From: Eubacteriales bacterium
GTDB taxonomy: Bacteria > Bacillota > Clostridia > Oscillospirales > CAG-272
Direction: 5' to 3'
NCBI GenBank assembly: GCA_045661325.1
Contig: JAZRFK010000066.1
Span: forward strand, 6,484 to 70,483
DNA length: 64,000 nt
The notes below the pieces were generated by a model. The model had not been told where the DNA came from. It ran no database searches and worked only from the letters and a program-made list of their open reading frames with translations. This document shows, piece after piece, positions 34,299 through 50,302 of this stretch (the first letter of the stretch is position 1; every line of letters begins with the position of its first letter). The translations under genes and the position numbers were made by a program.

Positions 34299-34308
34299 GG
34301 GCGGTAGC

Positions 34309-35346: not shown

Positions 35347-35394
35347 AAAAGAGCAAGCACACAAGAAAAATCTTGTATACTTGCTCTTTTTTTA
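35347..35394. terminator. Bidirectional terminator at the boundary between trxB and the phage-like block
   Basis: AAAAGAGCAAG...CTTGCTCTTTT 11-bp stem with an inner ACAAG/CTTGT pairing, and T-runs on both strands. It abuts the stop at 35392. Confidence 0.7.
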
Positions 35395-36300
35395 TGCCTC
35401 GTTTGTAGCGAGTGTGGGAGAAGGGGGCGCGTCTGCCTCCGAGAGAGAAATCGGTTGGGCATTTGCAAGGGAGGGCAGGAAATCCTTGAAATATTCCTCT
35501 AACAAATCGCTCTGCTCCTCCAAATAGAGAACCGTGTCCTTGGCAATATTGCAATACCCGGCCCTATACCCCTTGATGCCGTTAAAAACCAGGGTGAAAA
35601 CCTTGGAAAGATAGCCGACCAAGAGGGCAGGGTTGGGCGCAACGATGATCTGGCAAAGCACCGAAACCGAGAAAAAGGCGGTAAACAGAGAGGCAAAAAG
35701 ATAGGGAAGGAAGCGGCGGCGCTTGGCGGCGGCAGGGGTCTTGGAAAGAGGAGGGCGGTAGCCGCCCTCCTCCCTGCTAAACAGAAGCATAGAGGGGCTA
35801 ATGCGTACCTGCCGCATCCGCCTTACGCGCACAAGCCCTCTTTTTTGTGCGGGGGAGAGATGAGCCTCGTTCCCCTTGTCCGTCAAATCCTTCTCCGATA
35901 AGCCGTAAAAGGAAAGCAGAGCGCTTCGCTTGCTTTCGGTTTCGCGTCGGCTCACTCTTTCGCAAAAAAGAAGGAGCGAGCGCATATCGCCCTTTTCTCG
36001 AAAGGAGAGGCGAAGGATGCTTGCGCGGTCTCTTGCCTCGCCGTATTCCTTTTCCTGCTTGGCGCGATCTGCGCCTGTCTCGGACAGGGAAAAATACATC
36101 ACGTAGGAGGCAAAGAGCAAAACGAGAAACTGTAAGGAAAAGGATAAAGAGGTTTGCAGGCTGATGGAGATATCCGTGAAAAAGAGGGCGGATACCGATA
36201 AAAAGGTGAAAACGGCGCACACGATGCCGAGATGAGAAAGCACGCCGCGCAAAGCGCCGCGCCCCTCCGAAAGCGGCGCCTCGGAAAACGGATTAGACAT
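35392..36300 (-). CDS. Membrane protein of unknown function (last gene of the phage-like block)
   Basis: 302 aa: 2 TM helices, a basic ~110-aa cytoplasmic segment (RRETESKR, VRVRRMRQVR), 2 more TM helices, and an acidic tail. Confidence 0.45.
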   Translation of the reverse strand: MSNPFSEAPLSEGRGALRGVLSHLGIVCAVFTFLSVSALFFTDISISLQTSLSFSLQFLVLLFASYVMYFSLSETGADRAKQEKEYGEARDRASILRLSFREKGDMRSLLLFCERVSRRETESKRSALLSFYGLSEKDLTDKGNEAHLSPAQKRGLVRVRRMRQVRISPSMLLFSREEGGYRPPLSKTPAAAKRRRFLPYLFASLFTAFFSVSVLCQIIVAPNPALLVGYLSKVFTLVFNGIKGYRAGYCNIAKDTVLYLEEQSDLLEEYFKDFLPSLANAQPISLSEADAPPSPTLATNEA

Positions 36301-36308
36301 AAAACCTC

Positions 36309-36656
36309 CTATTTGTGTTCCTTTCTCTCATAGCGTCGGGCAAGCGCAAAGCACAAGGCGCCGAGCATACTGAAGGGAAAGGCAACGAGGGAAACGGCAA
36401 TTAAGCCGTCGATTATGTTGCGGAAAAGGGATAAGAAAAGCCAGAGCAAAAACCAAAGCATCCAGGCAGACGGGCTTTTCAGCGCCTTTTTGATGGCCTT
36501 GACGAAGGGCAAGGCCACCAGCACCAAAAGCAGAATGCCCAAAAAGGAAAGGGCGGATTTTCCGTCTGAAAGCCAGATGGGAAAATACTCTAAAGAGGAA
36601 AAGAGGGCGGGGAGAACGCAAAAGCCAAAGCCCGCGATTTTAAAACAAGTGATCAT
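36309..36656 (-). CDS. Holin-like small membrane protein
   Basis: 115 aa with about 4 TM helices and a highly charged C-terminus, 'RRYERKEHK'. Its position follows the tail-fibre and XkdX genes. Confidence 0.4.
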   Translation of the reverse strand: MITCFKIAGFGFCVLPALFSSLEYFPIWLSDGKSALSFLGILLLVLVALPFVKAIKKALKSPSAWMLWFLLWLFLSLFRNIIDGLIAVSLVAFPFSMLGALCFALARRYERKEHK

Positions 36657-36702
36657 AAAAGCTCCATTCTGCCGCAGTGGCGGCTAAGACGAGAGGCGTC
36701 CT

Positions 36703-37329
36703 TTAATTTTCCTCCAAGGTCTTTTGAAGCGCCAAGTAACGCTCGCTCATCAAATCCTTCTGCGCCTGGGGAAGATTGACGCATTGCAGCATACGGAAGA
36801 GCAGCTCCGTTTCGGTTTGCAGGGCGGCAGTCGTTTTTTTCTTATCCCTGACGCTTTCGTTAAGGGCGCTCTCTAAGGCGGCCAGGCGTTTTTCCGTTTC
36901 GCTCAGAACGGTAAGGGCGCTTTGGGAGGCCAAAACGGCGGCCTCGGCTCCCTCCTTTAAGGCGGCAAGCTTTTCTTCTGCCAAGGCAGAGAATTCCTCG
37001 GCCTTTTGGCTCGTTTTACCGCTTACGTCGGAAAGGGCGGAAATACCTGCGCGCAGTAGGGGCAAAAGCCCCGTTTTGTAAAGCAAGGTTGGCACGAGAG
37101 AGGCAAGACAAGCCAGCACGCAAAGGATTTTTTCGGCGTGCTTGCTCAAAAAGTCTCCAACGGCATTGGTGAAAACGGCGTTCTCTGTGTTTGCCGTCTC
37201 GCTTTCGGGGCTTGCGGTGTCGGCAAGCGGAGCAGAGGTCGTGCTATCGGCAGTCTCGGCGCTCGCGCAAAGAGCGAAAATGACGGAGAAGAGCAGAAGA
37301 AAAAGCAAAAGATATAAAGTTTTTTTCAT
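36703..37329 (-). CDS. Secreted or membrane-anchored coiled-coil protein
   Basis: MKKTLYLLLFLLLFSVIFALCASA signal peptide, an internal TM helix, then a Leu/Ala/Glu-rich coiled-coil. ATG 37329 follows GGAGGAA. The track ORF to 37440 is over-extended. Confidence 0.5.
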   Translation of the reverse strand: MKKTLYLLLFLLLFSVIFALCASAETADSTTSAPLADTASPESETANTENAVFTNAVGDFLSKHAEKILCVLACLASLVPTLLYKTGLLPLLRAGISALSDVSGKTSQKAEEFSALAEEKLAALKEGAEAAVLASQSALTVLSETEKRLAALESALNESVRDKKKTTAALQTETELLFRMLQCVNLPQAQKDLMSERYLALQKTLEEN

Positions 37330-37348
37330 AAGGGTTCCTCCAAAAATA

Positions 37349-37741
37349 TCAAATATCAAACAGCGAGGGGCCAAGAAAACGCGCGGAAAGGTCAGAAATC
37401 GCCTCCTCTGCCCTTTGTAAGCGCAGAGCCATTTCCTCAACCTGCTGTAAAAGGGAAAGAATGACCTTTTCGGTGGGGAAGGCGAGGGGCATAACCAAAG
37501 CGCCGTGCCGATAGAGGCTCTGGCAGGGCAGTCTTTTTCCCTCTACCTTGATAGAGACGGTGCTTTCCCCCTCCAAGAGATCCGAGGGAGAAATGCGGAA
37601 AAAGGCCCTCTTTTCGCCGTTTTCAAGGGGCGCGCCGTTGATATAGAGAGCCCCCTCCTTCTCCAAGCAAATATAGAAGGGGCCCTTTTGCTCCTTTCCA
37701 TCGGTAAAGATGCCAAAGCCGTCAAGAATTTTTAAATTCAT
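37349..37741 (-). CDS. Hypothetical phage-block protein (130 aa)
   Basis: ORF with RBS AAAGGAG and an ATGA overlap with the XkdX-like ORF. I recognise no family. Confidence 0.45.
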   Translation of the reverse strand: MNLKILDGFGIFTDGKEQKGPFYICLEKEGALYINGAPLENGEKRAFFRISPSDLLEGESTVSIKVEGKRLPCQSLYRHGALVMPLAFPTEKVILSLLQQVEEMALRLQRAEEAISDLSARFLGPSLFDI

Positions 37742-37875
37742 TTTTGACTCCTTTCGCGCAAAAGGGCGTCCCTTTCCGCTTGGGTGATAAGGCCCTTTTT
37801 AACGGCGTCATCCAGTCTTTGCAGGGACCAGAGCCCCGATAAGAAAAAGGTGCGGATTTTTTCAAGCCTCGTCAT
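37738..37875 (-). CDS. XkdX-like small phage protein (45 aa; below the ORF-track cutoff)
   Basis: Own translation: MTRLEKIRTFFLSGLWSLQRLDDAVKKGLITQAERDALLRERSQK. The 'W...V.kG.IT..e...l' pattern matches the XkdX family as recalled. It overlaps both neighbours. Confidence 0.5.
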   Translation of the reverse strand: MTRLEKIRTFFLSGLWSLQRLDDAVKKGLITQAERDALLRERSQK

Positions 37876-38020
37876 CCTTCTTGTCCTCCTCAAGCGAAAT
37901 GCTTGCCATCATGGCAAGGTAGTAAAGGTCTGCTTCAAGCTTGGCATTTTGAGCGGCAAGGGCAGCGCAGACCTCTTGCGCCTCGTGTAAGGCGCGGTGA
38001 ACGTTTTTGTAAATCAGCAT
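37862..38020 (-). CDS. Small hypothetical phage-block protein (52 aa; below the ORF-track cutoff)
   Basis: Own translation: MLIYKNVHRALHEAQEVCAALAAQNAKLEADLYYLAMMASISLEEDKKDDEA. RBS GAAAGGA lies 6 nt upstream, and the ORF starts 21 nt after the fibre gene stop. Confidence 0.35.
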   Translation of the reverse strand: MLIYKNVHRALHEAQEVCAALAAQNAKLEADLYYLAMMASISLEEDKKDDEA

Positions 38021-38041
38021 AACGGTTCCTTTCTTTTTTCA

Positions 38042-39214
38042 TCAGGCAACCACGCACATAGGCGCGATGCCCGCAGCTACGTTGGCGGCAATTTCGGAAA
38101 CCTCGCCCGTTTTCGTTACCACGCGGCACAAGCAAAGAGAATCCTCGTTTACCGAGCGTAAAAACCAAGCGGTCGGCACGCCGTTTTGGTACTTGATGCG
38201 CGCCTTATCCGCTTCGTTTGAGGCCGCGGTGTTATCCGAAAAATAGCGGTAATAGGCGTAGCTCTTGCCCTCGTTTTCCGCCGCCTCGTTATAGGGCTCG
38301 GCATAAATCTCGCTCTCGGAGGGCAAGAAGAAAAGGTCCTCGGTTGCGGTATAGCTGCCGCTGAAAAAAATATTGTTGTTTCGGCTCGCCTTTGGGGCAG
38401 GATACAGCACCGCCAGAAAATCCTCGTCGAGTCCGTACATAAAGCCGTTTACATCGTAGTTCCAGGAGGCGTAATGCTCGTGGGCGGTGGGAACGCCCTT
38501 AAAAATACTGCCCTTCGGGGCGTTGCTGTTGAGATAGGTGCGAACCAAGGAATAAGACCAATAGTTATAGCCGTAACGAATGCGCTCAGCAGAGGCAAGC
38601 TTGCTTGTGGGAAGAAGCGTTCCGCGTTCTCCCGCGTATACCGTCACCGTTTCAATGGGAGAGGTGGCAAAGGCAGAGGTGAAGGTGGAAAGAGGGGTGT
38701 TTAAGGCCGTTTTTCCAACAGTCCAGGGGAAGAACAGGTGGCCGCCCGCCGGCACGTCCTTTTCGAGAGTGAAATGGTAATACGCATCTGCGCCCTCCAA
38801 GACATCCGTGGTGGAAAGGGAGGCCTTTCCGTACAGATGAAAGCAATAGGTGCCTGCCGGCAGAGCCGAGGCGCAAAAGTACAGGGCGTGAGATAAGGCA
38901 AAGGGAAGAAGCGCGATGGGGTTATGCAGCTGCAACGTGAGCGAGTGCTTGGGCGATCCCTCGCCGCGCGTTATCTTCTCCTCGTCAAGACCGACAACGT
39001 CCCAAATCAGATTTTTTCCTTCCTTTTGGCAAATCAACTGATCGCCCACCGAAAGCATTTCCTTGGCAACGCCCGTTCGAACCAGCGCCTGCAAATTTGC
39101 CCAGGAGTCCAGTTCTATCGTTTCCTTTCGCGCCAAAATGCGTAAAAGCGCGTTTTGCGTGTCCATTTTTTCGGCAAAGGTACTGTCGGACAAAATGTTA
39201 ATAAAGGTTGACAT
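38042..39214 (-). CDS. Tail fibre / receptor-binding protein with a DUF6273-like C-terminal domain
   Basis: 390 aa. C-terminal 'TAWFLRSV...GEVSEIAANVAAGIAPMCVV' resembles the 'WWLRS...G..P' prophage fibre domain from memory. It precedes the XkdX-like ORF, as in PBSX-type tail ends. Confidence 0.5.
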   Translation of the reverse strand: MSTFINILSDSTFAEKMDTQNALLRILARKETIELDSWANLQALVRTGVAKEMLSVGDQLICQKEGKNLIWDVVGLDEEKITRGEGSPKHSLTLQLHNPIALLPFALSHALYFCASALPAGTYCFHLYGKASLSTTDVLEGADAYYHFTLEKDVPAGGHLFFPWTVGKTALNTPLSTFTSAFATSPIETVTVYAGERGTLLPTSKLASAERIRYGYNYWSYSLVRTYLNSNAPKGSIFKGVPTAHEHYASWNYDVNGFMYGLDEDFLAVLYPAPKASRNNNIFFSGSYTATEDLFFLPSESEIYAEPYNEAAENEGKSYAYYRYFSDNTAASNEADKARIKYQNGVPTAWFLRSVNEDSLCLCRVVTKTGEVSEIAANVAAGIAPMCVVA

Positions 39215-39236
39215 TTTAGTTTCCTTTCTGAATTTT

Positions 39237-40340
39237 TTAAGCCTTTTCGGTCAAAAGAATGCCGGGCATTCCGTCCTGCAAGGCGAGAGAATAGAGATAA
39301 ACGCGTCCCGTTTTTTCATCGGTCAGCGTGTGGGGCGGCAGAGCGGCAAGCTGCTCTTTCATGGCCTCCGTTTCTGCCTTTTTGGCAAAATCGGCAGAGG
39401 AAAGCCCCTTATGCAGCGTCAGACTGTTGCCAACGGCCGTAATCCCCGTAACAACGTCGCCCTTTCCCTCGGCGTGAATAATGGTGGTTTTCACAAGGTC
39501 GCCAACGCGGATATAAATGTGGTCGGCATTTTCCGAGGAAAGCGTTAGGTCGATATAGGCCTCTCCCACCTCATAGGTGGAAACGGGAACGCCCGCCACC
39601 TCGCAGGTGCAAAGCTTGCCGCTTTTAACCACCAGGTCGCGCGGAATATTGATGTCGACCGAGGCGGCAACGGGGGCGTAGCTTGCTTCCCCTGTCTCTC
39701 TTTCTCCTTCGCAGTATTCAAGGCGGTACACCTTGGCGTAATCGCTTGAAGGAACCTCGGCAATGCGAAAGCCGTGGGGAAGCGCGCTTCGTAAAGAAAG
39801 AATGGCCTCGCGGCTTTCCTTTTCAATGGCGTCGGCACGGGCGCTCTGTGCGGCGGTTGCTTCGGCTTGGGCCTTTTCCTGTGCCGTAAGGCGCGCAAGA
39901 AGGGCCTCCTTTCCCTCGCGAAGCGATGTCAGCGCCTCTTCGAAGGCCGTAAGCTCGGCCTTGCACGCCCCGAAAACCTCGGCAAGCGATCCCTCGCCGT
40001 CAAGGGAAAGATAGGTGGAAAAGCGCCCCGAGGTAACGTCGGCAAAAAGCTCGGCCAGGGAATGCCCCTCGGCAATGCCCGTGGCAACGAGGGCGGCAAG
40101 GGAGGCGCCCTTCTTTTCGTCCGTATAAAGCCCCAAGGCGTCGATTAAGGCATTGAAGCGCTCGGCAAGCAAAATCGGAAGCTTGTCGAAGGCGGCGCGC
40201 AGCTCCTTCGCGGAAAGCACCCGACCTCCGTAAAGGGAGGGGGAGGAGGGGCGCGTCGATAACGAGGAAACGGCGTTTTCTTCAATCTCTGTGTTTAAAA
40301 TTTTGGATATACTCATATACGTTAACGCCCTCGCCCCCAA
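39237..40340 (-). CDS. Fibre/needle-like structural protein with a central coiled-coil
   Basis: The Ala/Glu-rich central segment (LTAQEKAQAEATAAQSARADAIEKE) suggests a trimeric coiled-coil. The start is ambiguous: TTG 40340 lies 10 nt after AAGGAGG, while ATG 40316 has no SD. Confidence 0.45.
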   Translation of the reverse strand: MGARALTYMSISKILNTEIEENAVSSLSTRPSSPSLYGGRVLSAKELRAAFDKLPILLAERFNALIDALGLYTDEKKGASLAALVATGIAEGHSLAELFADVTSGRFSTYLSLDGEGSLAEVFGACKAELTAFEEALTSLREGKEALLARLTAQEKAQAEATAAQSARADAIEKESREAILSLRSALPHGFRIAEVPSSDYAKVYRLEYCEGERETGEASYAPVAASVDINIPRDLVVKSGKLCTCEVAGVPVSTYEVGEAYIDLTLSSENADHIYIRVGDLVKTTIIHAEGKGDVVTGITAVGNSLTLHKGLSSADFAKKAETEAMKEQLAALPPHTLTDEKTGRVYLYSLALQDGMPGILLTEKA

Positions 40341-40380
40341 AGGAGCGAGGGCCTCCTTTTTATTGGATTTTTTGCGCCCG

Positions 40381-43299
40381 TCAAAGCTTGCCTGCGGGGG
40401 TATAGCAGTAGGCGAGGCTGTAAATACCGAAGGGAGAACGGAAAACCTCCTCAAAGAAGGCAAGCTGTTTTTCGCACCAGCCACGCTCCTTTTCCCGAAT
40501 GGGAAGAGTTACAGCCGTGTCTGACGAAAAGGAAAAGGCAGAGAAGTCGGCGCCTTCAAAATCGGCCGCATCCGTGGCAGAGACGTCAACGGTATGCCAT
40601 GCGCGCTTGTCCGTGCGCGCCTCAACGGTGAGGCGGGTGGGGCCAAGAAGCTTTAAGCGCAGGGCAAGTGTGCCGGACAGGGTGTTTTTACGCAAGTGCG
40701 GCAGTCCGCCGTCATCCTTGGCCGTTGCACAGCCCACAGGATACCGATGGCCGTTAAAGGTGTAATAAAAGGAAGGAATACGACCCGCCTTTCCTTCTTC
40801 AAGCAGCTCGGCAAGATAGAACGCATCGCCGTTTTGGTATACGGGGAAAAGGCCCACCTCCCGATACGTGCCGTTCTCTTCGGCGTAAAGGGGCATATTG
40901 ACGATGCCCTCTTCGCTTTGTATCTCGCCGCCTTTTTGGGAGAGAGGACGGTATACCCCCTCCTTTAAGCAGTATAGAGAGCAGGGAAGCGTGCGGTAAA
41001 GGGCCTTTCCGCGTTTGTCGGTGTTGAAGCAGCCTAAGCTGCCGTTTTCCGTTGCAAAAAAGAGCGCGTTCTTGCCTGCGGCCAAAAGGGTTGCGGGGGA
41101 AAGAAAACCGCCCGTCCGTTCGCCGTCTGTATCCACAGCGTAGCGCACGCCCTGCTTTTCAACATAGTAAAGCAGCTCTCCCTCCTCGCCAAGAAGGGAA
41201 TAGACCGTACCCTCGGCCACCTCGCCGCCCTTTTCAAAGAGGCAAATATGGGCGGCCTCGGCGCCCTTGGGCAAGACCTCGGCGTAGCGATAAAGGGGCG
41301 CGTCATTTTCGAAATCGCCTATTCCCGACAGGAAATACCATTCATATTGCAGGTCGCCCGACGGATGACGGTAGGTTTCCCGACTGTCTGCCAAATACAG
41401 ATTTCCGTTTGCAAGAAGGAATAAATATCCCTCAAAAACGGCCATTTTGGCGCGCGAAAGATCCTCGCGACAAAGGCGAAGGTTGACAGAGCAAGAGCGA
41501 TTGGCAAGCGAGCGCTCCAAATTTACCGTCTGGCGCGAGACGGCCAAAAGGCCGCTTCCCGTCAGAAAAACGGGGTCATCCCGAAAGCTGACGGCCGCCC
41601 CCACGGCCCCAACGCCCGCAACGCCCGATTTGGCAGGATAAATGCGCGGTGCAAGGGCGCTCGTTGTGCTTTCGGCGGAGTGATAATAGATGCCGCTTTC
41701 CGAGGCGCCGTCCTCCTTGATAACCATTAAAACGTCTCCCGTGCCCAAGAGGGCGCGGTTGGGAACGGAGGAAAGTCCGTCGTTGAAATAGTTGAGGTTG
41801 CCGATGTAAAGGGGGTTGTTGTAGCCCGTTTCATCGGGCGCAGAGAAGAAAACGGTGTTGGGCAGACGGGGATTTCCCGTAAAGAAAATTCTCCCATCGT
41901 ATTCTCCCGTGGTGCGACAGCCGAGAACGGCCTCTCTGCCCGTCAAGGAAACACCGCCCTCGCCAAAGGCCTTGAAGCCGTCGGGCGTGGAAAAGAGGGT
42001 CGGGGAGGCAGAAAGGTGCAAGGTCAGTCTGCGGCCTGAAAGAATAGCGGGGTCGGAAACCAAAAGGCCAAGAGAGGAAACAAGCCCGTCCTTCAAAAGC
42101 GGAACGTAGCGCACGAAGGCACCGTCCAAAAGCGTACCCGATTCGGCAATTTTTTCGCTTCCCAGCCAAACCTCCCCAACAGAGAGGGAAGGGGTATACA
42201 CGGGGCAAATGAAAAGCGCCGTTTCCCGCGAAATCGGGGTTGATTCGAAATACACCGTCGTTTCCTCCGAAAACGCGGGGGAGTCCGCAAAGGAAATGCC
42301 GCGAAAGGCGGCTTCGGTGTAAGGAAAATATACGCTTGTCAGGTGATAGTCTCCCATAAAAGCCCCCTCGCCCACGGAAACGAGGCTTTCGCTGAGTGTC
42401 ACGGTGCTTAGAAAGGGACAAAAGGCAAAGGCGTGATTCCAGATGAAGCGCACGGAGCTTGGCAGGGTGATTTCGGAAAGGGATAAGCATCCTGCAAAGG
42501 CGTAGGCGCCGATTTCGGTAACGGTGTCGGGAATGGAAACGGAAACGAGGTTGGAAAGCCCCGAAAAGCCGTTTCCTGCAATGCCCGTGACGGTGTAGGT
42601 TTCCCCGTTGATTTCCGCAAAGCGCGGAATTTTGACGGCGGTGGGCGAAGCCATACTGCCGCCTGCCTTGACCGCACAGCAGCCGGGGGAGTTTGCCAGC
42701 GGAATAAAGACGAGATTGTCATAAGGCGCGGCCTTTTCCTCTTCCAAGGCCTCCGCACTTAATACCTCTCGTACCTCGTCTGTCAAAAGATTGCGCTGCT
42801 CGTAGTATTCTCCGTTGTAAAAGACGATAGGGGCATAGGGCAAATCGGCTTCATCGGGAAGCGCGCGGCAGATGCCCTTTTCGTCAATACGGTAAAGCCC
42901 TCCGCCAATCAGAAGATAGAAATACTCGCCCGACTGAAAGCCGCAGCCCTCCGCTTCGGGCAAAGCGGAGAAGATGGGCGAAAGCATAGATAAGGCGGCG
43001 GGTTGATGGCGCAGGGCGGTAGAAAAGCGAAAGAGTTGCTTGTCTGCGTGCACAAGCAGGTATTCCTCGCCCCCCGCCCTTTGCAAATAAATGCCATAGA
43101 TATGCTTGCCGAAGGAGGCAAGGATGCGATAGCCGGGAAAGGCCTCAACGGCAGGGCCATCGTCGCTTTGCCAGTCCTTCCACATATTTTTCAGGTTGGC
43201 AAAGCGCTCAAAGGACAAGGAAGTGTCATCCACCGAAAAATCAACGCCGCGAAAGCGAGAGACGCTTCGGGTATAAACGCGAGAGGAGCTGTTGTTCAT
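40381..43299 (-). CDS. 972-aa virion-module protein with an internal BspA-type leucine-rich-repeat segment (putative tail, adhesin or nozzle protein)
   Basis: 'IPDTVTEIGAYAFAGCLSLSEITLPSSVRFIWNHAFAFCPFLSTVTLSESLVSVGEGAF' is the LRR_5/BspA pattern. The rest looks beta-rich and I recognise no family. ATGA overlap with the upstream gene. Confidence 0.55.
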   Translation of the reverse strand: MNNSSSRVYTRSVSRFRGVDFSVDDTSLSFERFANLKNMWKDWQSDDGPAVEAFPGYRILASFGKHIYGIYLQRAGGEEYLLVHADKQLFRFSTALRHQPAALSMLSPIFSALPEAEGCGFQSGEYFYLLIGGGLYRIDEKGICRALPDEADLPYAPIVFYNGEYYEQRNLLTDEVREVLSAEALEEEKAAPYDNLVFIPLANSPGCCAVKAGGSMASPTAVKIPRFAEINGETYTVTGIAGNGFSGLSNLVSVSIPDTVTEIGAYAFAGCLSLSEITLPSSVRFIWNHAFAFCPFLSTVTLSESLVSVGEGAFMGDYHLTSVYFPYTEAAFRGISFADSPAFSEETTVYFESTPISRETALFICPVYTPSLSVGEVWLGSEKIAESGTLLDGAFVRYVPLLKDGLVSSLGLLVSDPAILSGRRLTLHLSASPTLFSTPDGFKAFGEGGVSLTGREAVLGCRTTGEYDGRIFFTGNPRLPNTVFFSAPDETGYNNPLYIGNLNYFNDGLSSVPNRALLGTGDVLMVIKEDGASESGIYYHSAESTTSALAPRIYPAKSGVAGVGAVGAAVSFRDDPVFLTGSGLLAVSRQTVNLERSLANRSCSVNLRLCREDLSRAKMAVFEGYLFLLANGNLYLADSRETYRHPSGDLQYEWYFLSGIGDFENDAPLYRYAEVLPKGAEAAHICLFEKGGEVAEGTVYSLLGEEGELLYYVEKQGVRYAVDTDGERTGGFLSPATLLAAGKNALFFATENGSLGCFNTDKRGKALYRTLPCSLYCLKEGVYRPLSQKGGEIQSEEGIVNMPLYAEENGTYREVGLFPVYQNGDAFYLAELLEEGKAGRIPSFYYTFNGHRYPVGCATAKDDGGLPHLRKNTLSGTLALRLKLLGPTRLTVEARTDKRAWHTVDVSATDAADFEGADFSAFSFSSDTAVTLPIREKERGWCEKQLAFFEEVFRSPFGIYSLAYCYTPAGKL

Positions 43300-43868
43300 A
43301 GGCTATCCCATCCGTTTCTGCTTTGATAGGAGGCCGCGGTATGCTCGCGCCGCTCGCGCTTCATTTCGGCAAGCTCCGAGCGGAAAAGCCCCAGATAGTG
43401 CGAGGCAAGCTCCGCCCTGTCATCTGCCCAGAGATACGAGGCAACAAGCAGCGGAAGCAGGTGCAGCGCCTCCGGCTGAATATCAAGCTCCTTATCCATA
43501 TTGTCGGCGTGAAGGCGCTTGGGACAGCGCAGATAGCGAATCTCCAAGCTGCCCTCGTGGCCCTTGGCAAGACGAACGCGGCTTCCCTCTAACAGAAAGT
43601 CGCGCCCCTCTTGCAGAAGGAGAGAGCCAAGACGCAGGGGCTGTTCGGGAAAAGAACGAAAGTCATCGCATAAGGCGCCGATGTCGTACTCGGTGTAGTA
43701 GGAATCGCCGTCAATGTGTTTGAGGGTGATTTTTTGTATCAAGGGGAAATGGCGGGAGATTTGCAAAAGAGAAAGGCTGGTAATCTGATAAAAATAGGGC
43801 TCGTTCTCGTCAAGGCTTTTGGAAAAGCCCATACGGGCGACTAAGGCCATCAGTTCTTTTCCTGTCAT
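43296..43868 (-). CDS. Hypothetical head-completion or adaptor-position protein (190 aa)
   Basis: Sits directly after the capsid gene and overlaps the 972-aa gene. The function is inferred from position only. Confidence 0.35.
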   Translation of the reverse strand: MTGKELMALVARMGFSKSLDENEPYFYQITSLSLLQISRHFPLIQKITLKHIDGDSYYTEYDIGALCDDFRSFPEQPLRLGSLLLQEGRDFLLEGSRVRLAKGHEGSLEIRYLRCPKRLHADNMDKELDIQPEALHLLPLLVASYLWADDRAELASHYLGLFRSELAEMKRERREHTAASYQSRNGWDSL

Positions 43869-43886
43869 AGCGTCTCCTTTTTTCTT

Positions 43887-44948
43887 TTAAAGCTTGGTGC
43901 TGTTTTCCACCTCGGAGGTGGAATCAACGGCCAAGAGAATGTGCTTGTAGGAGCCAAAGCCCACGCCAAAGCGGCATCTGCCGTTCCAGATGTAGTTGCC
44001 CGTGTGGTTGTCTACCCAGTTGGAGACGGTCAAGGGCACGCGGTTGAAGAACATATTGCCGCAAAGATTTTTGTTGGCTTCGGAGGACATAATCATCACG
44101 CGGTCATCCTCGGTCTGCCAGTCGGGCATCACAACAACGTTCCAGTTGCCGAATTGCAGGTTGATGTCGTTGTAGCCGTTGCCCAGAGCGCCCTCAGAGC
44201 CGCAAACCTTCTTGGCAATGGCCTCTGCGGCGGGACGGTTACCGGGAAGAATGATGGTGTCGGGGGTGTAGCCGAGAATTTCGCCGTTTTCGTCCTTCAT
44301 GTTGCGAAGCTTGGAGGCAAGCTCGTTCAGCGCCTCCTCAAAGGCGGCGGTGGAGTAGGCGCGCTCGCCTTCCTTACCGCTCTTGAAAATATCGCCGAAG
44401 AAATAGTTGCTCTGCAAGCCGGTGTTGTCACCGCCGCCCCACTTGTGCGCGGTATGGAACAGGGGCAGACCGTCAGGTGCGGTCAGGTCAAGGTTGGCTC
44501 TGGCAAAAACGCCCGAGTCCTTGGTGCCGTTAGCCAAGGCGTACTCACAAATCTTGTGCATCGTCTTGTAATAGGCACGGGTGAAGTTCTCCGCGCGGCG
44601 CTCGGCGTCGGCCGCAACGCCGGAGTTGGCGTCCTCCATCATCTGTGCAGTGGTGGTAAACTCCTTCATAAACTGGATGTGCTCGATGAACTTGCGATAG
44701 GTTTCGCGGATTTCATCGTTTTCGGCGCCTGCGCCCTCCTCGGTTGCGGCAAAAACGCCAAATTCGTTCTGGCCGACCACCGTTTCGCCAAAGCGCGTCG
44801 AGCGCTCCACGTTAAACAGCCAGTCGCAAATGCCGCCCCTTTTGGTTTGCAAGTCACTTTCGTGCTCGATTATCATTTTCAAGGGCGTTTCCAGCTTGCC
44901 GATTGCGGCGTTGTTCAAGCCGCTGTTTTCAGAATAGATGATTGACAT
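43887..44948 (-). CDS. Major capsid protein (probable HK97 fold)
   Basis: 353 aa, downstream of the scaffold-like protein, with a strong RBS. Size and position are canonical; no motif-level proof. Confidence 0.65.
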   Translation of the reverse strand: MSIIYSENSGLNNAAIGKLETPLKMIIEHESDLQTKRGGICDWLFNVERSTRFGETVVGQNEFGVFAATEEGAGAENDEIRETYRKFIEHIQFMKEFTTTAQMMEDANSGVAADAERRAENFTRAYYKTMHKICEYALANGTKDSGVFARANLDLTAPDGLPLFHTAHKWGGGDNTGLQSNYFFGDIFKSGKEGERAYSTAAFEEALNELASKLRNMKDENGEILGYTPDTIILPGNRPAAEAIAKKVCGSEGALGNGYNDINLQFGNWNVVVMPDWQTEDDRVMIMSSEANKNLCGNMFFNRVPLTVSNWVDNHTGNYIWNGRCRFGVGFGSYKHILLAVDSTSEVENSTKL

Positions 44949-44972
44949 TGTAAAATACCTTTCTTTTTTTAT

Positions 44973-45386
44973 TTACGCGCGGGGAAAACGGACGAGAACG
45001 GCGTCACCTGTCGCAAGCGCGCCGCGCTTGTCCATCAACACGGCGCCGTGAAGAGCGCCCGTTGCTTTAACGGAGGAAAGTGCCTTGCCGTCGGCAGAGA
45101 AGAGATATTCCTCTCCAAAGGACAGCGCGTTGGGGTCTTCGGCAGTCGGCACGGAAAAGACCATATCCTCGGTAATGCGATAGACAAGAGGAGAGAGGGT
45201 CTCTTCCTCGCTTGCCAGCGCAACGTATGCGGGCAAGGCGGATAAGGTGTCGGAGGCGGGAATGAGCGCGCCGTTCTCGTAGGCGTAGGCCAAGCCCTCC
45301 TCAACCCTCGTCTTCTCCTTGAGTGTAAGATGCTCAGGCTCGGGCACGTTAGGGCCGCGGCCAATGATTTTTATAAGCGTCAGCAT
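44973..45386 (-). CDS. Small head-module protein (decoration or auxiliary, 137 aa)
   Basis: ATG 45386 follows GAAAGGA. It lies between the scaffold and capsid genes. The track ORF to 45452 is over-extended. Confidence 0.4.
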   Translation of the reverse strand: MLTLIKIIGRGPNVPEPEHLTLKEKTRVEEGLAYAYENGALIPASDTLSALPAYVALASEEETLSPLVYRITEDMVFSVPTAEDPNALSFGEEYLFSADGKALSSVKATGALHGAVLMDKRGALATGDAVLVRFPRA

Positions 45387-45402
45387 ACAAAATCCTTTCG
45401 TT

Positions 45403-45894
45403 TTAATAGGAATAGGGGGATTTGACGCGGCGATAGAGCTTTTGTATTTCACCGTCGCTCAAATCCGAAAAAAGCTCTTTGGCGTGGCGCATATCCTCAC
45501 CCGACAGCGTTCCCGCAGGGGAAGCGGCACCCTTGCCGGCGCTGGGCAAAAGATGCGCCTTGCCGTTTTCCTTGGGAAAACGGGGGTTGGAGGCGGCCAA
45601 GGCCTCCGCAACGGAAAGGCCCATATCGCGCAAGGCGGCAAAGCGGCGCGCAAAGGGAAGCTGGCTCAGATGGGTCAAGGGGAGATAGGAGGCGTCAAGC
45701 CGCTTGATTTCTGCCAAATCCTCCTCGGCCAAACGGGCATAATCCCGTTCCTCTGCAATAGGGGCGCTCGGTGGCTCTTCCTCTGCCGAGGGAGTTTCTT
45801 CCGACTCGGTATCGAGCGCCTCCGTTTCCTCTTCCATGGGTGCTTCTTCGAGCACGGGGGTTGCTTCCTCTTCTAAAACGTGCAAGTCTTCCAT
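45403..45894 (-). CDS. Scaffolding-like protein
   Basis: 163 aa with a very acidic N-terminus (EEEATPVLEEAPMEEETEALDTESEE) and a helical C-terminus, located before the capsid gene. Confidence 0.5.
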   Translation of the reverse strand: MEDLHVLEEEATPVLEEAPMEEETEALDTESEETPSAEEEPPSAPIAEERDYARLAEEDLAEIKRLDASYLPLTHLSQLPFARRFAALRDMGLSVAEALAASNPRFPKENGKAHLLPSAGKGAASPAGTLSGEDMRHAKELFSDLSDGEIQKLYRRVKSPYSY

Positions 45895-45918
45895 ATCGTT
45901 TTCCTTTCTTCGCTTTTT

Positions 45919-46059
45919 TTATCTGCTCTTGCTTTTCGTTCGCAGGTCGTCGCCCTTCTGAACGGTCGCCTTAGGCTCCTTTTCGTTCTTGTGCGGGGCG
46001 GCAATGGGCTGCAAGCCGTTGCTTGCATAGGGGTTGACCCTCTTGATTTGCTTTTTCAT
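45919..46059 (-). CDS. Small basic protein (46 aa; below the ORF-track cutoff)
   Basis: Own translation: MKKQIKRVNPYASNGLQPIAAPHKNEKEPKATVQKGDDLRTKSKSR. RBS GAAAGGAA lies 7 nt upstream. Confidence 0.35.
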   Translation of the reverse strand: MKKQIKRVNPYASNGLQPIAAPHKNEKEPKATVQKGDDLRTKSKSR

Positions 46060-46091
46060 CGTGGGATTCCTTTCGTTTTACAATACTCGTT

Positions 46092-46796
46092 TTAAAAATA
46101 ATCGTCGGGATTGAAGGTTGCGTTCATGATGCTGTGGGCGGTCTTGGCAATTTCCTCGGCAAGCGCAGGGGAAAGCCCGTAGGAAATCGCGTAGTTATAG
46201 GCATCGGTATAGGACATATAGTTCTTCAAGACGGTGCTCAAAACCGCTTTTTTGGCGGAGGTGGAGTTTTTCACCATCGAGACGCTTTCCTTGGCCATAC
46301 GGGCGGCCGTTTCACCGTCAAGCCCGTTTTCCGTCAAAAAGGCCGCAGCACTTGCCTCATCCTCTACGTTTTGAGAAAGAAGAGAAAGAAACAGGCTCGT
46401 TCTTTTCTCGGAGCTTTCCTTGGCGGCCTTGGTCGCCTCGCTTCTCTCCTTATCGAGATAAGCGGCGTATGCCGTGCGGCTTTCTGCCTCGCCCTTTGCC
46501 CTTGCCTGCTTGGCATTTGCAACGGCTCTTTGTCTTTCGGTGTAGGCAAGGCCGTCCAAATAATCGCCGTAGCCGCTTCCCGTCAGACCGCGCTCTAAAA
46601 GAGCTTCGGCGCGTACACCGTGCGTGGCCTTGGCCTCGGCATAGGCCGTATCGGCCTGCTTCACGGCGGCCTTGTAGCTATCCTCGGTGTCTTTGCCGTA
46701 TTTGTCGAGCCAGCTTTCGTAGTCTTCAATTTTCTTGTTTTTTAAATACTGTTTGATAAAATCCTCAAGCGTTGCCATAAGTGTCCGTTTTTTCAC
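46092..46796 (-). CDS. Hypothetical head-module protein (possibly a minor head or ejection protein)
   Basis: 228-234 aa, Ala/Lys/Glu-rich. It overlaps the end of the portal gene. The start is ambiguous (GTG 46796 or ATG 46778). Confidence 0.45.
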   Translation of the reverse strand: MKKRTLMATLEDFIKQYLKNKKIEDYESWLDKYGKDTEDSYKAAVKQADTAYAEAKATHGVRAEALLERGLTGSGYGDYLDGLAYTERQRAVANAKQARAKGEAESRTAYAAYLDKERSEATKAAKESSEKRTSLFLSLLSQNVEDEASAAAFLTENGLDGETAARMAKESVSMVKNSTSAKKAVLSTVLKNYMSYTDAYNYAISYGLSPALAEEIAKTAHSIMNATFNPDDYF

Positions 46797-48561
46797 TCCT
46801 TTCGGTAGAGAAGAGATGGGCAGTCTCCTCCTTTTCTGTCAGGGCGCGGAAATATTCCACGTTTTCTCTGGCATACGGGTAATGGGCGCGCTCCTGGCAT
46901 TGCCAGTAGTGCAGGAGCGTTGCGTTGCTCTTGGGGTCGCCAAGTGTGCCTGCTTGCAGGTTTTCAAGGTTTTTCTGCCAAAGCGCATCTCTTTGCTGCT
47001 CCAAGGCGCCGTTCTGATCCACCGAGAAAAGAAAGCCATCGTCATAGGTGTAACAGCCGTTTTCCTCGTCATACAAAAGAAAGTCATAGCGGTTGAAGGC
47101 GGTGTGATGCTGCTTGCCGAAGGCGTCGCGATAGGAAAGGGGGCGCGGCTCGTCGGCATAGGCAAGGAAAAACTCAAACAGGATTCTGTCGAGGTCTGCA
47201 TAAGCGGCCTGCTTCATCTTGCGCTTGGAGTCCAAGCGGCCTGCCGCCTGCTCCACCTGAATGCGCTTGGCGTAGCCCGACTGCGCGCTGGCATCGTTCA
47301 TGCCTAAATAGGAATCGGTGATACCGAGAATCCGCTTGGCGTGCTGGTATAAGCGCTCCGATTGCTCAACGTCCTGGGCGATGATGGGGGTGGTGTCCAA
47401 AACGCCGTAGCGCTCGCGCTCGTCTCCCGAGCGAAGCTTGATGACCTGACCGAAAATGGAGTTGTCAAGGGTCAGCTCCGCATCATCGGGCAGAATAGGG
47501 GTTATGCCTGAACGCATCAGCTTTTGCAGAATACGGCTCTCAATTTTGTTGATTTGCTGCTGCTGGGGGCGAATAAAGGCGCAGTCCGATTGACCCAAAA
47601 GAGATTTTTCCTCCGAGGTGTTTTTCCGAATAACGATGGGAAAGCACCGCGGTCTGTAATAAGGCAGACGGGTGGGGCGCAGGGTCTTCTGACATATGCC
47701 GTTTTCAATTTCGGGCGACAGAGCGGGGATAACCCTTCCATCGTCAAGCACAATATCCTCGGACAAAACCTCCTCCTCGTCAGAGCCTAAATAGAATGAA
47801 GGTTTTTCGCAGGTGCAAAGCGCACGCTTTTTATGGCAGCACCGGCATTTTTCCGTTTTTCTCGCATAATAATCCTCAAGGTCGGAAAGAACCACGTCGC
47901 CGCAGTAAATAAACTGCGAAACGTGGCCGTCATCGTTGCGCCAGAAGCAGACTATCATTTCAAGAACGTCGTCCTCGTCATCGCCCTCGCCAAGCGCGGC
48001 GGCCTCCTCATCCTTCAAGGAAAAGCGACGAATTATCGCGTTTTTCGTGGTGTCAAAGCGCAAAAAGCAGTATTCCATATCCGCAACGTCGTAAACCTCG
48101 GCCTCGGGAATAAAATCCATAGGCGAAAGACAGCTGATACGAACGCCGCCCACAATGCCTCTGTAAAGGAGCGAGTCATCCCATTCCACAAGCCAGACGC
48201 TTCCGCCGTAAATATAGGTATAGCGCTCGTCAAGATCATTCAGTCTTTCAAAGGGCAGCTCATTGCGAAGCTGGGTGCAAAGACGCTCAATGGCCTTGGC
48301 GTTTCGGTCATTCTGCTCGGTGTAGTGCTTGGCCTCGGCACAGGGCGCGGGGATTTGCGTGGAAACCTGGGATTCAATCAGCTCGTAGGTGATATTTCGC
48401 ACGACGGACGCCGCCTCGGCAGAGCCGTCTATCTCTCTTGCGCCCTTGTACTGCGCTAAATGCCGTTCAAGGTGCAAAAGCAGGGCGGCTTGCTTGTCGC
48501 GATTTTTTTGATACAGACTCTTGAAAAAGGAGAGTCTGTTGTCAACGTGGGAAAGATTCAT
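46765..48561 (-). CDS. Portal protein
   Basis: 598 aa immediately after terL (ATGA overlap). Segments 'NITYELIESQVSTQIP' and 'SGYAKRIQVEQAAGRLDSKR' are portal-like. The track ORF to 48813 is over-extended. Confidence 0.75.
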   Translation of the reverse strand: MNLSHVDNRLSFFKSLYQKNRDKQAALLLHLERHLAQYKGAREIDGSAEAASVVRNITYELIESQVSTQIPAPCAEAKHYTEQNDRNAKAIERLCTQLRNELPFERLNDLDERYTYIYGGSVWLVEWDDSLLYRGIVGGVRISCLSPMDFIPEAEVYDVADMEYCFLRFDTTKNAIIRRFSLKDEEAAALGEGDDEDDVLEMIVCFWRNDDGHVSQFIYCGDVVLSDLEDYYARKTEKCRCCHKKRALCTCEKPSFYLGSDEEEVLSEDIVLDDGRVIPALSPEIENGICQKTLRPTRLPYYRPRCFPIVIRKNTSEEKSLLGQSDCAFIRPQQQQINKIESRILQKLMRSGITPILPDDAELTLDNSIFGQVIKLRSGDERERYGVLDTTPIIAQDVEQSERLYQHAKRILGITDSYLGMNDASAQSGYAKRIQVEQAAGRLDSKRKMKQAAYADLDRILFEFFLAYADEPRPLSYRDAFGKQHHTAFNRYDFLLYDEENGCYTYDDGFLFSVDQNGALEQQRDALWQKNLENLQAGTLGDPKSNATLLHYWQCQERAHYPYARENVEYFRALTEKEETAHLFSTERSEKTDTYGNA

Positions 48562-49928
48562 AATGGTTCTCCGTATTTTTCTTTTAAATATCGCTTTTGC
48601 TCGTCGGAGGCGTGGCGGTAATCCTCCCACAAGTCGCTGTTCCACGCGCGCCGCCTTGCCGCTTTTTCTTCCTTGGCGGCGTGTGTAAAGGTGATGGCAA
48701 AGCCGCGCAAGGCATCGGGCGCGTGGGTAATGGCGTGGGGCTCGGTTAAGATGTCGCTTGGCGCGTTTGGATCGATTTGAAGCATCGGTAAGCATCGGCA
48801 AATCTCGCGACACTGTCTGAAAATACGCAGGCGCGGCGTTCCGTCTTCACGAATTTTAAGCAATTCTTTCAAGGCAAGCCAACCGGTCTCGCGGTTGTTG
48901 CCGGAACGGGTGAAGGAAACGCCGTGCTCGGCGAAGAGAATAGCCTTGCTCTTTCCCGTTTCTTGCGAACGGCTCCATAAATCAGGGGGTGCCAAGGTGG
49001 CGTAAATTTTGTCCTCTCCGTTCCGCTTTCGTATGGCGGCGGCCGCCTCCGAGATAATCAGATTTGACTCGCAAAGCTCTTTGTAAACGTACACGTCCTC
49101 GTTTGGTGCAATAGCCACCCATAAGCAAGCCAGTCGGTCAAGTCCGTAGTCAAGTGTGCGGTAGCGGCGCCAATCGGGCGGAATGGGAAAGGGGTCAACC
49201 ACGTGCAGTGCCTCGGAAAATTCGGGGAAATACTGTCCCTCAAAAATGTTCCAGTCACCGTACAGCAGGGCTTTCCGTTGGGCCTCGGGAAGCTCAAGCA
49301 GGCGCTTTTTATAATCGGGGTCGCCCTCTGTCAAGAAGAGGTTATCGTCGATATAGGAGGGGAGAAAAATGCGGGTGTTCTTTCCCTCTGAAAAAAGCGT
49401 GTTGGGAGGAGAAGGGTCGATAAACCGTTCCTTAACCCAGGCGTGCCCAATACCGCCGGGGTTGGTGGAGGATTTTACCTGCTTCGGATATCCGTTGGCC
49501 CCACGCAAACGGGAAATCAGATACAGGTATTGGAACTCGGTAAAGTGGGTCAGCTCGTCAAAGCGAATAACGTCATATTCAGCAGATTGATACTGAAAAA
49601 CATCGTTTTCCACGGCGCAGTAACCAAAATCAATCACGCTGCCGTTCTTAAACTTCCCCGTGTGATTGGAGGAATTGTAACGGTAGATTTCATTTGGATA
49701 GAGCCCCAAGGAAACGCGGATGAGCGATTTTTCCAGCTCCGCGTAGGTGCGCCGCAGAATCAGCTGCTTGGATGCGGGATAACGCAGGGCGTACACCAAA
49801 GCGTCCACCAGCTGCCCGTAGGATTTTCCACCGCCTGCCGCCCCGCCAAACAGAACCTCTGTGGCAGAGGAGGTAAGAAAATCGTATTGTCGCCTTGTGA
49901 CCGATAAAGAAAGCTCGGAGGTTTTCAT
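48558..49928 (-). CDS. terL: Terminase large subunit
   Basis: Walker A 'FGGAAGGGKSYG', Walker B-like 'YDVIRFDELT', C-terminal nuclease-size domain; 456 aa. ATGA overlap with terS. Confidence 0.85.
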   Translation of the reverse strand: MKTSELSLSVTRRQYDFLTSSATEVLFGGAAGGGKSYGQLVDALVYALRYPASKQLILRRTYAELEKSLIRVSLGLYPNEIYRYNSSNHTGKFKNGSVIDFGYCAVENDVFQYQSAEYDVIRFDELTHFTEFQYLYLISRLRGANGYPKQVKSSTNPGGIGHAWVKERFIDPSPPNTLFSEGKNTRIFLPSYIDDNLFLTEGDPDYKKRLLELPEAQRKALLYGDWNIFEGQYFPEFSEALHVVDPFPIPPDWRRYRTLDYGLDRLACLWVAIAPNEDVYVYKELCESNLIISEAAAAIRKRNGEDKIYATLAPPDLWSRSQETGKSKAILFAEHGVSFTRSGNNRETGWLALKELLKIREDGTPRLRIFRQCREICRCLPMLQIDPNAPSDILTEPHAITHAPDALRGFAITFTHAAKEEKAARRRAWNSDLWEDYRHASDEQKRYLKEKYGEPL

Positions 49929-50302
49929 TTCGTTGGCTCCTTCACCGTCACGGAGAGCGAGAAGGCCTCGCTTCCTCCGTCCTCCTCCTTGTCGGAGTAG
50001 CCGTAACGCGCCGAGAGAAGAAACTTGGCAAAGGAGGAATCCAAGCGGCGACAAAGCGCGCCGTCCGTGATTCTGTCCTTCAATATTTCCTCGCATTCCT
50101 CGTAGGCCTCCCGAAAGGGCGCGCTCTCCTCTCGCATCGCCGAAAGCGCCTTGACCGAAAGATTTTCTCTGTGGGCAAAGCGAACAAAGGAGGGAAGCAG
50201 CTCCTTATATTCACTGCCCTCGCAGCCCGCCGTTTCAAAATAACGGATCATTTTTTGCGCCAAGACTGCCTCGGCGCTTTGGTGCGCGGCTTCCTTTTCC
50301 AT
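49925..50302 (-). CDS. terS: Terminase small subunit-like protein
   Basis: 125 aa. 'LPSFVRFAHRENLSVKAL' is HTH-like, and 'DSSFAKFLLSARYGY' resembles the TerS C-terminal motif. It is the first gene of the block. Confidence 0.6.
   Translation of the reverse strand: MEKEAAHQSAEAVLAQKMIRYFETAGCEGSEYKELLPSFVRFAHRENLSVKALSAMREESAPFREAYEECEEILKDRITDGALCRRLDSSFAKFLLSARYGYSDKEEDGGSEAFSLSVTVKEPTK

Follow-up and report, generated by a model that had tools for sequence, protein, structure and literature searches.

A virion-only operon of gut Clostridia as a candidate domesticated, gene transfer agent-type relative of temperate podophages

We analysed a 64-kb stretch of DNA from an Eubacteriales bacterium (contig JAZRFK010000066.1; hereafter the window), in which a block of 18 genes, most of them virion or packaging genes, lies between housekeeping genes. 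Our analysis suggests, with a probability of roughly 0.6, that this block is a domesticated viriform of the gene transfer agent (GTA) type, which would represent the late arm (virion and lysis genes) of a temperate podophage lineage of P22 architecture from gut Clostridia. Following the GTA and viriform criteria of Kogay et al. 2022 (PMC9662315), we found virion and packaging genes in a cellular genome without replication, integration or excision genes of their own, together with vertical inheritance and purifying selection, the inheritance being qualified by several chromosomal contexts and by signs of phage exchange. The original prediction, made from the sequence alone, had read the block as a GTA-like or domesticated particle locus; the domesticated locus is borne out by the complete virion set, the lack of mobility genes, selection and co-divergence, and a GTA function is what we infer for it. 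Positions given below are those of the window, and L-numbers (L001 etc.) designate related loci retrieved from other genomes.

All 18 predicted open reading frames (ORFs) are present at 35392-50302 (Table 1), all on the minus strand and with intergenic gaps of at most 64 nt after start-codon refinement, and the four predicted junctions read ATGA on the minus strand exactly where expected (49925-49928, 48558-48561, 43296-43299 and 37738-37741). Profile and structure searches, together with position and composition in the case of the scaffold, assigned the packaging motor, portal, scaffold, capsid, adaptor, nozzle and fibres, in agreement with the predicted head and short tail, and two proteins that had been described only by their size, of 190 aa and of 972 aa with leucine-rich repeats (LRRs), proved to be an SU10-type adaptor and the tail nozzle. 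With the adaptor, nozzle and fibres identified, the operon encodes a complete short-tailed virion, an architecture for which the missing tube, sheath, tape measure and protease are normal. The nozzle assignment comes from an AlphaFold2 (AF2) model (65-sequence alignment, pLDDT 84.8), whose best structural matches are podovirus nozzles (cyanophage A4, HRP29, E1004, Kp9, SU10, T7 gp12 and P22 gp10); Foldseek against the PDB returned 9k09_U at 4e-18, SU10 7z4f_G at 2e-13, T7 gp12 and P22 gp10 8eap_D at 4e-9, and the model also matches ‘tail tubular protein B’ and gp10-like proteins in BFVD. A BspA-type LRR_5 insertion occupies residues ~200-420 of this protein. As for the capsid, a profile of its diverse relatives matches the Mu GpT-like capsid PDB 8rkc at 3.7e-9, and an AF2 model built from a shallow alignment (members with at least 79% identity) reached a pLDDT of only 33.

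Equally characteristic of the block is what it lacks. Neither Pfam and PHROGs searches of the 18 ORFs nor NCBIfam searches of ten ORFs recovered an integrase, repressor, replication gene, protease or peptidoglycan hydrolase, and ten further ORFs of the window were likewise without them. No direct repeats were found at the block edges, no tRNA genes in the window and no Rfam match, riboswitch included, in the block region. These searches agree with the original prediction that lysogeny, replication, protease and hydrolase genes and edge repeats are missing, and its concern that lysogeny, replication or lysin genes might hide among the unknown ORFs was not borne out by the profile searches. In the flank ORFs of 80 related loci, phmmer with tyrosine and serine recombinase seeds, a search of limited sensitivity, gave no recombinase at E <= 1, and a Pfam scan of 148 flank-ORF representatives placed none among the top 25 families listed. 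Two candidate identities were consequently rejected: a complete temperate prophage, whose integrase, lysogeny switch, replication genes and att repeats are absent from the window and the virion-only loci and present in the phage-type locus L098 (see below), and a capsid-forming phage-inducible chromosomal island or other satellite, as the block has no integrase, att site or replication module and encodes its own adaptor, nozzle and fibres.

The cluster is widespread. A large protein collection held 1,544 capsid relatives at E <= 1e-5, the best 120 of which showed 78–95% identity and lay on contigs of up to 359 kb, and a scan of one representative genome per species found a capsid relative in at least 161 species. 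Loci were retrieved for the best 80 of these 161 species (capsid identity 73–95%), whose hosts are all uncultured Clostridia, Eubacteriales or Oscillospiraceae known from metagenome-assembled genomes (MAGs) of ruminant and human guts. In the 44 loci for which the entire cluster lies inside the retrieved DNA (median span 14.3 kb), the gene order is always the same, i.e., terS, terL, portal, 228-aa gene, (46-aa gene), scaffold, 137-aa gene, capsid, adaptor, nozzle, fibre, a variable region of 0.5–3.5 kb, then coiled-coil, holin-like and four-transmembrane (4-TM) genes, and TerL, portal and capsid each give one uninterrupted alignment over at least 95% of their length in 44/44. The original view of the block as intact is thus supported by full-length orthologue alignments, and it was also found intact at the same trxB/DUF554-pgsA-rimO site in L001-L003. 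Wherever flanks were examined, host genes stand directly on both sides: in ~26 species terS is preceded, at a distance of a few hundred bp, by the end of an ABC-F ATPase gene and farther out by an amino-acid ABC transporter, and the downstream flanks of related loci hold MFS, CysK, DinG-like or MTA-nucleosidase genes. By comparison, 50,697 phage records contained only two unannotated faecal fragments at 27–35% identity, and two scans of IMG/VR gave 14 fragments only, each of at most 21 kb; this scarcity in phage collections leaves little sign of a free virus.

Some relatives depart from this pattern. In three species the cluster is permuted, running from the scaffold to the 4-TM gene and then directly into terS-terL-portal (L020:8928-21032, L025:9509-21035 and L027:9506-21035), with recX-recA-galK-miaA-OGG-glycosyltransferase upstream of these type B loci; this arrangement is compatible with tandem duplication and subsequent loss as well as with a domestication event of its own. 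A partial cluster on a 3.35-Mb contig (L097:6661-12900, GCA_900198705.1), made of the scaffold, the 137-aa protein, a capsid with 47% identity, the adaptor, the nozzle and the start of the fibre, is surrounded by metabolic genes of the host, has neither a terminase nor a portal gene close by, and represents a locus that has been split or a copy that has decayed. The two faecal fragments mentioned above are GenBank ‘Bacteriophage sp.’ records from human faeces, L093 (MT836833.1):44-10774 and L094 (MT837280.1). They are distant relatives (portal 35% and capsid 27% identical) with the same gene order and a 621-aa nozzle without LRR, and in L093 a tyrosine integrase directly follows the fibre gene.

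Selection analysis of the window against L001-L003 gave ratios of nonsynonymous to synonymous substitution (dN/dS) of 0.045–0.47 for all 18 genes, i.e., purifying selection and not decay. The values of the capsid, TerL and portal are comparable to those of the neighbouring nrdD, trxB, rimO and pgsA genes (0.03–0.13). Synonymous divergence (dS) is alike in the block and its flanks, at 0.3–1.3 for the closest species and saturated for L003, and the housekeeping proteins of L001-L003 are 73–98% identical to those of the window; the dS values show that the window and the L001-L003 contigs do not come from one population. In addition, across 18 species with the ABC-F context, pairwise distances in portal, TerL and nozzle are correlated with the distances in the neighbouring ABC-F gene (r = 0.81–0.88, Mantel p <= 0.0005), and in the nozzle tree the ABC-F-context loci fall in one clade with no phage-type member. 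Taken together, low dN/dS, dS matching the flanks, co-divergence and intactness exclude a recent decaying remnant, and the pattern fits vertical descent over a long time.

A search with the C-terminal half of the nozzle found many contigs of 38–47 kb. Among them, L098 (ENA scaffold TONG22-1_..._scaffold_26, 43,992 bp) carries late genes in the order of the window. Its upstream part encodes a 3021-aa polyvalent protein (ART-PolyVal, LPD38) and then ORFs of 58 and 42 aa, the latter resembling the 46-aa peptide of the block; a 266-aa scaffold, capsid, SU10-like adaptor, nozzle and fibres follow, and beyond the slots that match the terminal three genes come, on the opposite strand, a tyrosine integrase, a CI-like HTH-S24 repressor and a Cro-like gene, with replication genes presumably present as well. 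Its capsid shares 72% identity with that of the window, and its nozzle 44% over a central stretch of 353 aa. L035, L040 and L087 are also phage-type, with polyvalent proteins upstream of the scaffold; those of L098:1-6621, L035:365-8185 and L040:86-4618 span 1511–3021 aa with ART-PolyVal, LPD38 and PBECR3 nuclease domains. Compared with these podophages, the block has host genes at both ends and a scaffold of 163 aa as against 266 aa in L098, a difference that holds generally (median 165 aa in virion-only loci vs 255–283 aa in phage-type relatives), and a 228-aa helical-repeat protein fills the polyvalent slot of the virion-only clusters. The existence of ~44-kb temperate relatives with the same late module plus integrase and CI/Cro genes makes the block a retained late arm of that lineage. 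The original prediction had named, as evidence against itself, the same genes in a complete temperate phage of which this locus is a recently truncated copy: such a phage exists in L098, with its integrase and CI/Cro genes, but these are diverged relatives and the block is no recent truncated copy.

The three genes that close the operon, i.e., the coiled-coil, holin-like and 4-TM genes, point to an uncharacterised lysis or release module; apart from one weak profile match to the coiled-coil protein, the databases contain nothing similar to the three products. The 302-aa 4-TM protein occupies the position expected of an endolysin; it has no Pfam match and no PDB profile match, and its family alignment shows no conserved catalytic-type residues. 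The holin-like gene is kept in at least 54 loci and in the temperate relatives. In L098 the corresponding slots hold a 210-aa protein, a holin-like protein and a 296-aa protein, after which the integrase follows at once. The holin-like proteins of L098 and the window are 34% identical, and the L098 coiled-coil and 4-TM proteins each resemble their families only through the L040 copy, with no match to the window copy. In a temperate relative, the genes of these three slots thus take up the classical lysis position next to the integrase, which gives the strongest reason so far for regarding the trio as the release module of the whole lineage.

Table 1. Features of the virion-only block and its borders, listed from terS to the end of the operon and then by border element.
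Feature	Position in window	Strand	Basis
Small terminase TerS, P22 gp3-like	49925..50302	-	PF16677 GP3_package 1e-5; phrog_3064 2e-8; dN/dS 0.15-0.16
Large terminase TerL	48558..49928	-	Terminase_6N 8e-12; phrog_979 1e-46; dN/dS 0.045-0.07
Portal	46765..48561	-	phrog_156 3e-30; dN/dS 0.08-0.11
228-aa helical-repeat protein	46092..46778	-	conserved in 54 loci
46-aa basic peptide, conserved small ORF	45919..46059	-	tblastn, same position in many loci
Acidic scaffolding protein, 163 aa	45403..45894	-	assigned by position and composition; conserved in 62 loci
137-aa conserved head-module protein	44973..45386	-	phrog_24113 5e-4; found in 43 loci
Major capsid protein, Mu GpT-type HK97-fold family	43887..44948	-	phrog_371 9e-7; tblastn matches to annotated capsids; dN/dS 0.06
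Head-to-tail adaptor, SU10-type, 190 aa	43296..43868	-	PF24175 SU10_adaptor 1e-4; phrog_13046 9e-9; same family on orthologues
Tail nozzle (tubular protein B / P22 gp10 class), 972 aa	40381..43299	-	AF2 and Foldseek; LRR_5 4e-20
Coiled-coil tail fibre	39237..40316	-	tblastn to other loci covers only first ~100-125 aa
DUF6273 fibre/receptor-binding protein, 390 aa	38042..39214	-	DUF6273 3e-11; phrog_19280 3e-27
52-aa ORF, variable region	37862..38020	-	conserved in L001-L003; dN/dS 0.13-0.32 (two comparisons with unsaturated dS)
XkdX-family small protein	37738..37893	-	PF09693 24.3 bits vs cut-off 23.5; alternative ATG at 37875
130-aa protein, beta domain and C-terminal coiled coil	37349..37741	-	conserved in L001-L003
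Signal-peptide/membrane-anchored coiled-coil protein, first of trio	36703..37329	-	conserved in 51 loci; only a weak profile match
Holin-like protein, four hydrophobic segments, basic C-terminus	36309..36656	-	sequence features
302-aa protein, 2+2 hydrophobic segments read as transmembrane helices, last gene	35392..36300	-	conserved in 50 loci
Promoter-like region upstream of terS	50396..50429 (wider conserved region 50396-50470)	-	TACAAT at 50396-50401, C-run, then GGTCAAAAAAA tract further upstream
Promoter-like site of the divergent DUF554 gene, TTGCAA-17-TACAAT	50477-50505	+	sequence reading; conserved
Bidirectional terminator-like hairpin between A-run and T-run	35349..35396	.	sequence reading; common to convergent trxB and operon end

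Several genes of the block call for comment beyond the table. TerL is 63–95% identical across loci, and a portal orthologue carries a precomputed weak P22_portal match. The 228-aa protein is possibly an internal or ejection protein; it matched no Pfam or PHROGs family, a PDB profile search gave designed helical repeats only, and its family model found no similarity to the polyvalent proteins, so that a polyvalent-protein remnant was rejected. At the position of the 46-aa peptide a 42-aa gene is called in L095 and L098, and for the 137-aa protein a PDB profile search gave nothing useful. In the coiled-coil fibre the N-terminal anchor is conserved and the distal part variable, according to the extent of the tblastn matches. 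The DUF6273 fibre is confined to the window and L001-L003 and belongs to the lineage-variable region, in which 21 loci encode a 139-aa protein built similarly to the 130-aa protein, itself a candidate fibre-assembly or accessory protein. Note that an ORF of 334 aa (43941-44945, plus strand) runs antisense over nearly the entire capsid gene, as also in 26 related loci (median 431 aa), and another of 796 aa (31938-34328, minus strand) is antisense to nrdD; we take both as probable side effects of codon usage together with strong conservation, not as genes. In the virion-only lineage of L043, a ClpP/NfeD-like protease gene (L043:3050-3910) lies directly upstream of terS, and could belong to the host or else encode a protease for head maturation that is lacking in the other clusters.

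The borders of the block are those originally predicted. On one side lie nrdG-nrdD-trxB, and the terminator anticipated for trxB was found as a hairpin with T-run at ~35349-35396; on the other side lie DUF554-pgsA-rimO-DnaJ-DUF5685, and the promoter anticipated for the divergent DUF554 gene is present and conserved. The space between terS and DUF554 measures 233 nt, and the TACAAT, C-run and GGTCAAAAAAA tract upstream of terS are kept in the four species of the window and L001-L003 despite saturated dS, so that this region looks like a candidate regulated promoter. The GC content of the block is the same as that of its surroundings. The next DUF554 homologues (46–58% identity), looked at as possible empty sites, lie in unrelated contexts. 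Elsewhere in the window, ORFs of 716 aa (14411-16561, plus strand) and 676 aa (16738-18768, minus strand) have no Pfam match, and one of 615 aa (12528-14375) has a RyR-domain match only.

From this gene content we propose how a GTA-type element may have arisen and may act. An ancestral prophage would have lost its integrase, CI/Cro switch, replication genes and giant injected polyvalent protein, and its late arm, fixed in the chromosome, would then have passed down vertically, its function maintained by selection. In part of the cell population, the conserved promoter upstream of terS would drive a single 18-gene transcript; portal, 163-aa scaffold and Mu-GpT-type capsid would assemble into procapsids without a protease; and TerS and TerL would fill them by headful packaging. 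Indeed, a P22 gp3-like TerS with a Terminase_6N TerL looks like a headful-type pair, compatible with the packaging of random host DNA, and as the locus would neither excise nor replicate, the packaged substrate would be chromosomal DNA. The SU10-like adaptor, the LRR-bearing nozzle and lineage-variable fibres would complete the short tail, after which the terminal trio would free the particles without a dedicated endolysin, either through membrane permeabilisation that triggers host autolysins or with the help of a lysin encoded elsewhere. Finally, particles would bind related cells and supply them with host DNA as a substrate for RecA-dependent recombination.

Several observations weigh against this domesticated-GTA interpretation. 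The window's own flanks are common only to L001-L003, and the chromosomal context varies between clades. The cluster contains no identified endolysin or regulator. Misbinning is possible where all hosts are uncultured MAGs, a risk against which the long contigs of the retrieved loci (up to 393 kb) argue. The window-family capsid is 72–91% identical to capsids of phage-type relatives with ~44-kb genomes, so the particle may take up a full-size headful that exceeds the 15-kb locus, which would break the classical GTA hallmark of a particle unable to carry its own genes (that the shorter scaffold would permit a smaller head is speculation). Moreover, phage-type capsids are interspersed among virion-only ones in the capsid tree, and the capsid of L087 is 91% identical to those of the virion-only L043, L047 and L052 when its nozzle is at most 36% identical to that of any locus. 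Such interspersion and mosaicism imply several truncations or continuing recombination with live phages instead of one clean domestication, and the family probably reflects more than one truncation event or ongoing phage recombination. In the nozzle tree, the phage-type loci cluster together, apart from the ABC-F clade, and the window forms a separate branch with L004, L005, L010, L011 and L015.

These signs of exchange bear on the idea that the cluster is a selfish defective prophage, a helper-dependent or recombination partner of related live phages on which selection acts at the level of the phage lineage. Co-resident temperate relatives would then supply regulation or replication and swap capsid and tail modules, as suggested by two MAGs in which a virion-only cluster and a phage-type relative occur together (L009 with L035, L062 with L040), by the capsid and nozzle mosaicism between the two types and by the nesting of phage-type capsids within virion-only diversity. 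We nevertheless consider it unlikely. Without att sites and an integrase, the cluster has no means of moving; its divergence follows that of the neighbouring host gene; no phage-type locus falls in the large ABC-F clade; and all 18 genes, terS and terL included, are intact in 44 species, which a recombination reservoir would not need. A prophage remnant on its way to decay, truncated recently and without function, is very improbable and already largely refuted. Complete temperate relatives do exist, and the partial cluster of L097 among host genes indicates that decay does occur in the family, but the block is syntenic and intact in three other species at 73–98% housekeeping identity and dS from 0.3 to saturation, every gene has a dN/dS below 0.5, and the boundaries are clean with host genes on both sides wherever flanks were examined.

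The particle could also be domesticated for another use, either as a PBSX-like killing particle or bacteriocin or in interference with the assembly of infecting related phages, packaging being incidental. The XkdX-family gene and the PBSX-like operon end are in line with this, the fast-evolving fibres and the adhesin-like LRR insertion suggest cell targeting, and related phages circulate in the same hosts. Yet TerS and TerL are among the best conserved proteins (dN/dS 0.05–0.16), which argues for selection on DNA packaging as such; podoviruses lack a contractile or piercing device known to kill unaided; and the MAGs in which both kinds of element coexist suggest that relatives are not strongly excluded. 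On balance a killing or defence role seems quite improbable to us, and we retain the domesticated GTA-type viriform as the preferred interpretation.

The original statement that no such system had been described for this bacterial group is outdated, since FpGTA and related GTA-like packaging have been published. FpGTA is a podovirus-type GTA-like element of Faecalibacterium prausnitzii (Borodovich et al., Nat Commun 2026, PMC12946183; 2024 preprint), with 40-nm, tailless-looking particles that contain random host fragments of 8.4–8.9 kb; its operon I (10.5 kb) encodes TerS, TerL, portal, scaffold, an N4-gp56-family capsid and a P22-gp10-like nozzle, and its operon II (5.5 kb) fibres, holin and endolysin (PMC12946183). 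The present cluster resembles it in its podovirus-type proteins, its host (a Gram-positive gut Clostridia anaerobe), a total of ~15–16 kb, the shared TerS, TerL, portal, scaffold, capsid, fibres and holin, and the lack of replication and integration genes, FpGTA being near-ubiquitous in its host genus; both nozzles match PDB 8eap, a P22 gp10 fold that occurs in many podoviruses. The two differ in that FpGTA consists of two operons ~125 kb apart with an endolysin, in contrast to one contiguous operon with no recognisable endolysin here, and in the LRR-bearing nozzle of the present family. Its capsid is annotated as N4-gp56 (RCH50849.1), whereas this family is Mu-GpT-type: the N4-gp56 NCBIfam model matched 0/76 sequences (the window capsid and 75 diverse family members), and scaf_prot_MCP2 was matched by 31 of the 76. 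Membership in the FpGTA family, which its authors did not detect outside Faecalibacterium, was therefore rejected on capsid family and locus architecture. FpGTA has been seen by electron microscopy, proteomics and packaged DNA, and the present family is known from genome sequences. GTA-like packaging has also been reported in Oscillospiraceae, Christensenellaceae and other Ruminococcaceae, where the genes were not identified (PMC12946183). As an example, the Oscillospiraceae genome F23-B02 shows uniform whole-genome packaging as 34.9-kb fragments with no induced prophage (PMC12946183); this signal is as expected from a full-size-headful domesticated particle like the one described here, and we take it as a lead only. 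Candidate clusters of ~14 kb have been described in murine gut Clostridia as well (2026 preprint, 10.64898/2026.07.08.737213).

Two further systems are comparable. RcGTA of Alphaproteobacteria (Rhodogtaviriformidae) is a ~15-kb, 17-gene head-tail cluster without integrase or replication genes, vertically inherited under purifying selection, with the capsid most conserved and the endolysin outside the main cluster. It is, however, siphovirus-like, with tape measure, tube and prohead protease, has an unrelated protein set in a different phylum and has no known close free-living phage relatives, unlike the present cluster, whose temperate relatives are extant; for RcGTA, a small T=3 capsid and control by CtrA/GafA are established. 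PBSX, which like its PBSX-like kin is a defective prophage of Bacillus, is likewise a chromosomally fixed Firmicutes element that packages host DNA, with an XkdX-family gene and an operon end with a membrane-protein and holin module, but it is contractile-tailed and myovirus-like, ~28 kb in size, carries an Xre repressor and the XlyA amidase, and forms a killing particle.

Altogether, the kind of system is already known, and by its gene content the present family is a strong candidate for a widespread further member of the podovirus-type GTA-like elements of gut Clostridia. We put forward more tentatively, as a possible but doubtful extension, that it is a second, independently domesticated and far more widespread podovirus-type GTA family of gut Clostridia (at least 161 species), with one self-contained operon, an endolysin-free lysis module around a novel 4-TM protein, living temperate relatives with which it exchanges modules, and possibly full-size headfuls. 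If true, the single operon, the endolysin-free lysis, the module-exchanging phage relatives and possibly the full-size headfuls would be unlike every characterised GTA, and the family would account for ‘generalised transduction without an induced phage’ signals in gut viromes. GTA-like packaging was recently shown to be the commonest entry of bacterial DNA into capsids in the human gut, with the genes known only for Faecalibacterium; the cluster described here provides a concrete candidate for many other uncultured gut Clostridia of humans and ruminants, and would extend the Gram-positive GTAs beyond PBSX and FpGTA. In addition, its extant temperate relatives offer a rare before/after pair for domestication, in which the integrase, the switch, replication and the injected polyvalent toxin-like protein would have been lost, and a shorter scaffold and an LRR on the nozzle would mark what changed.

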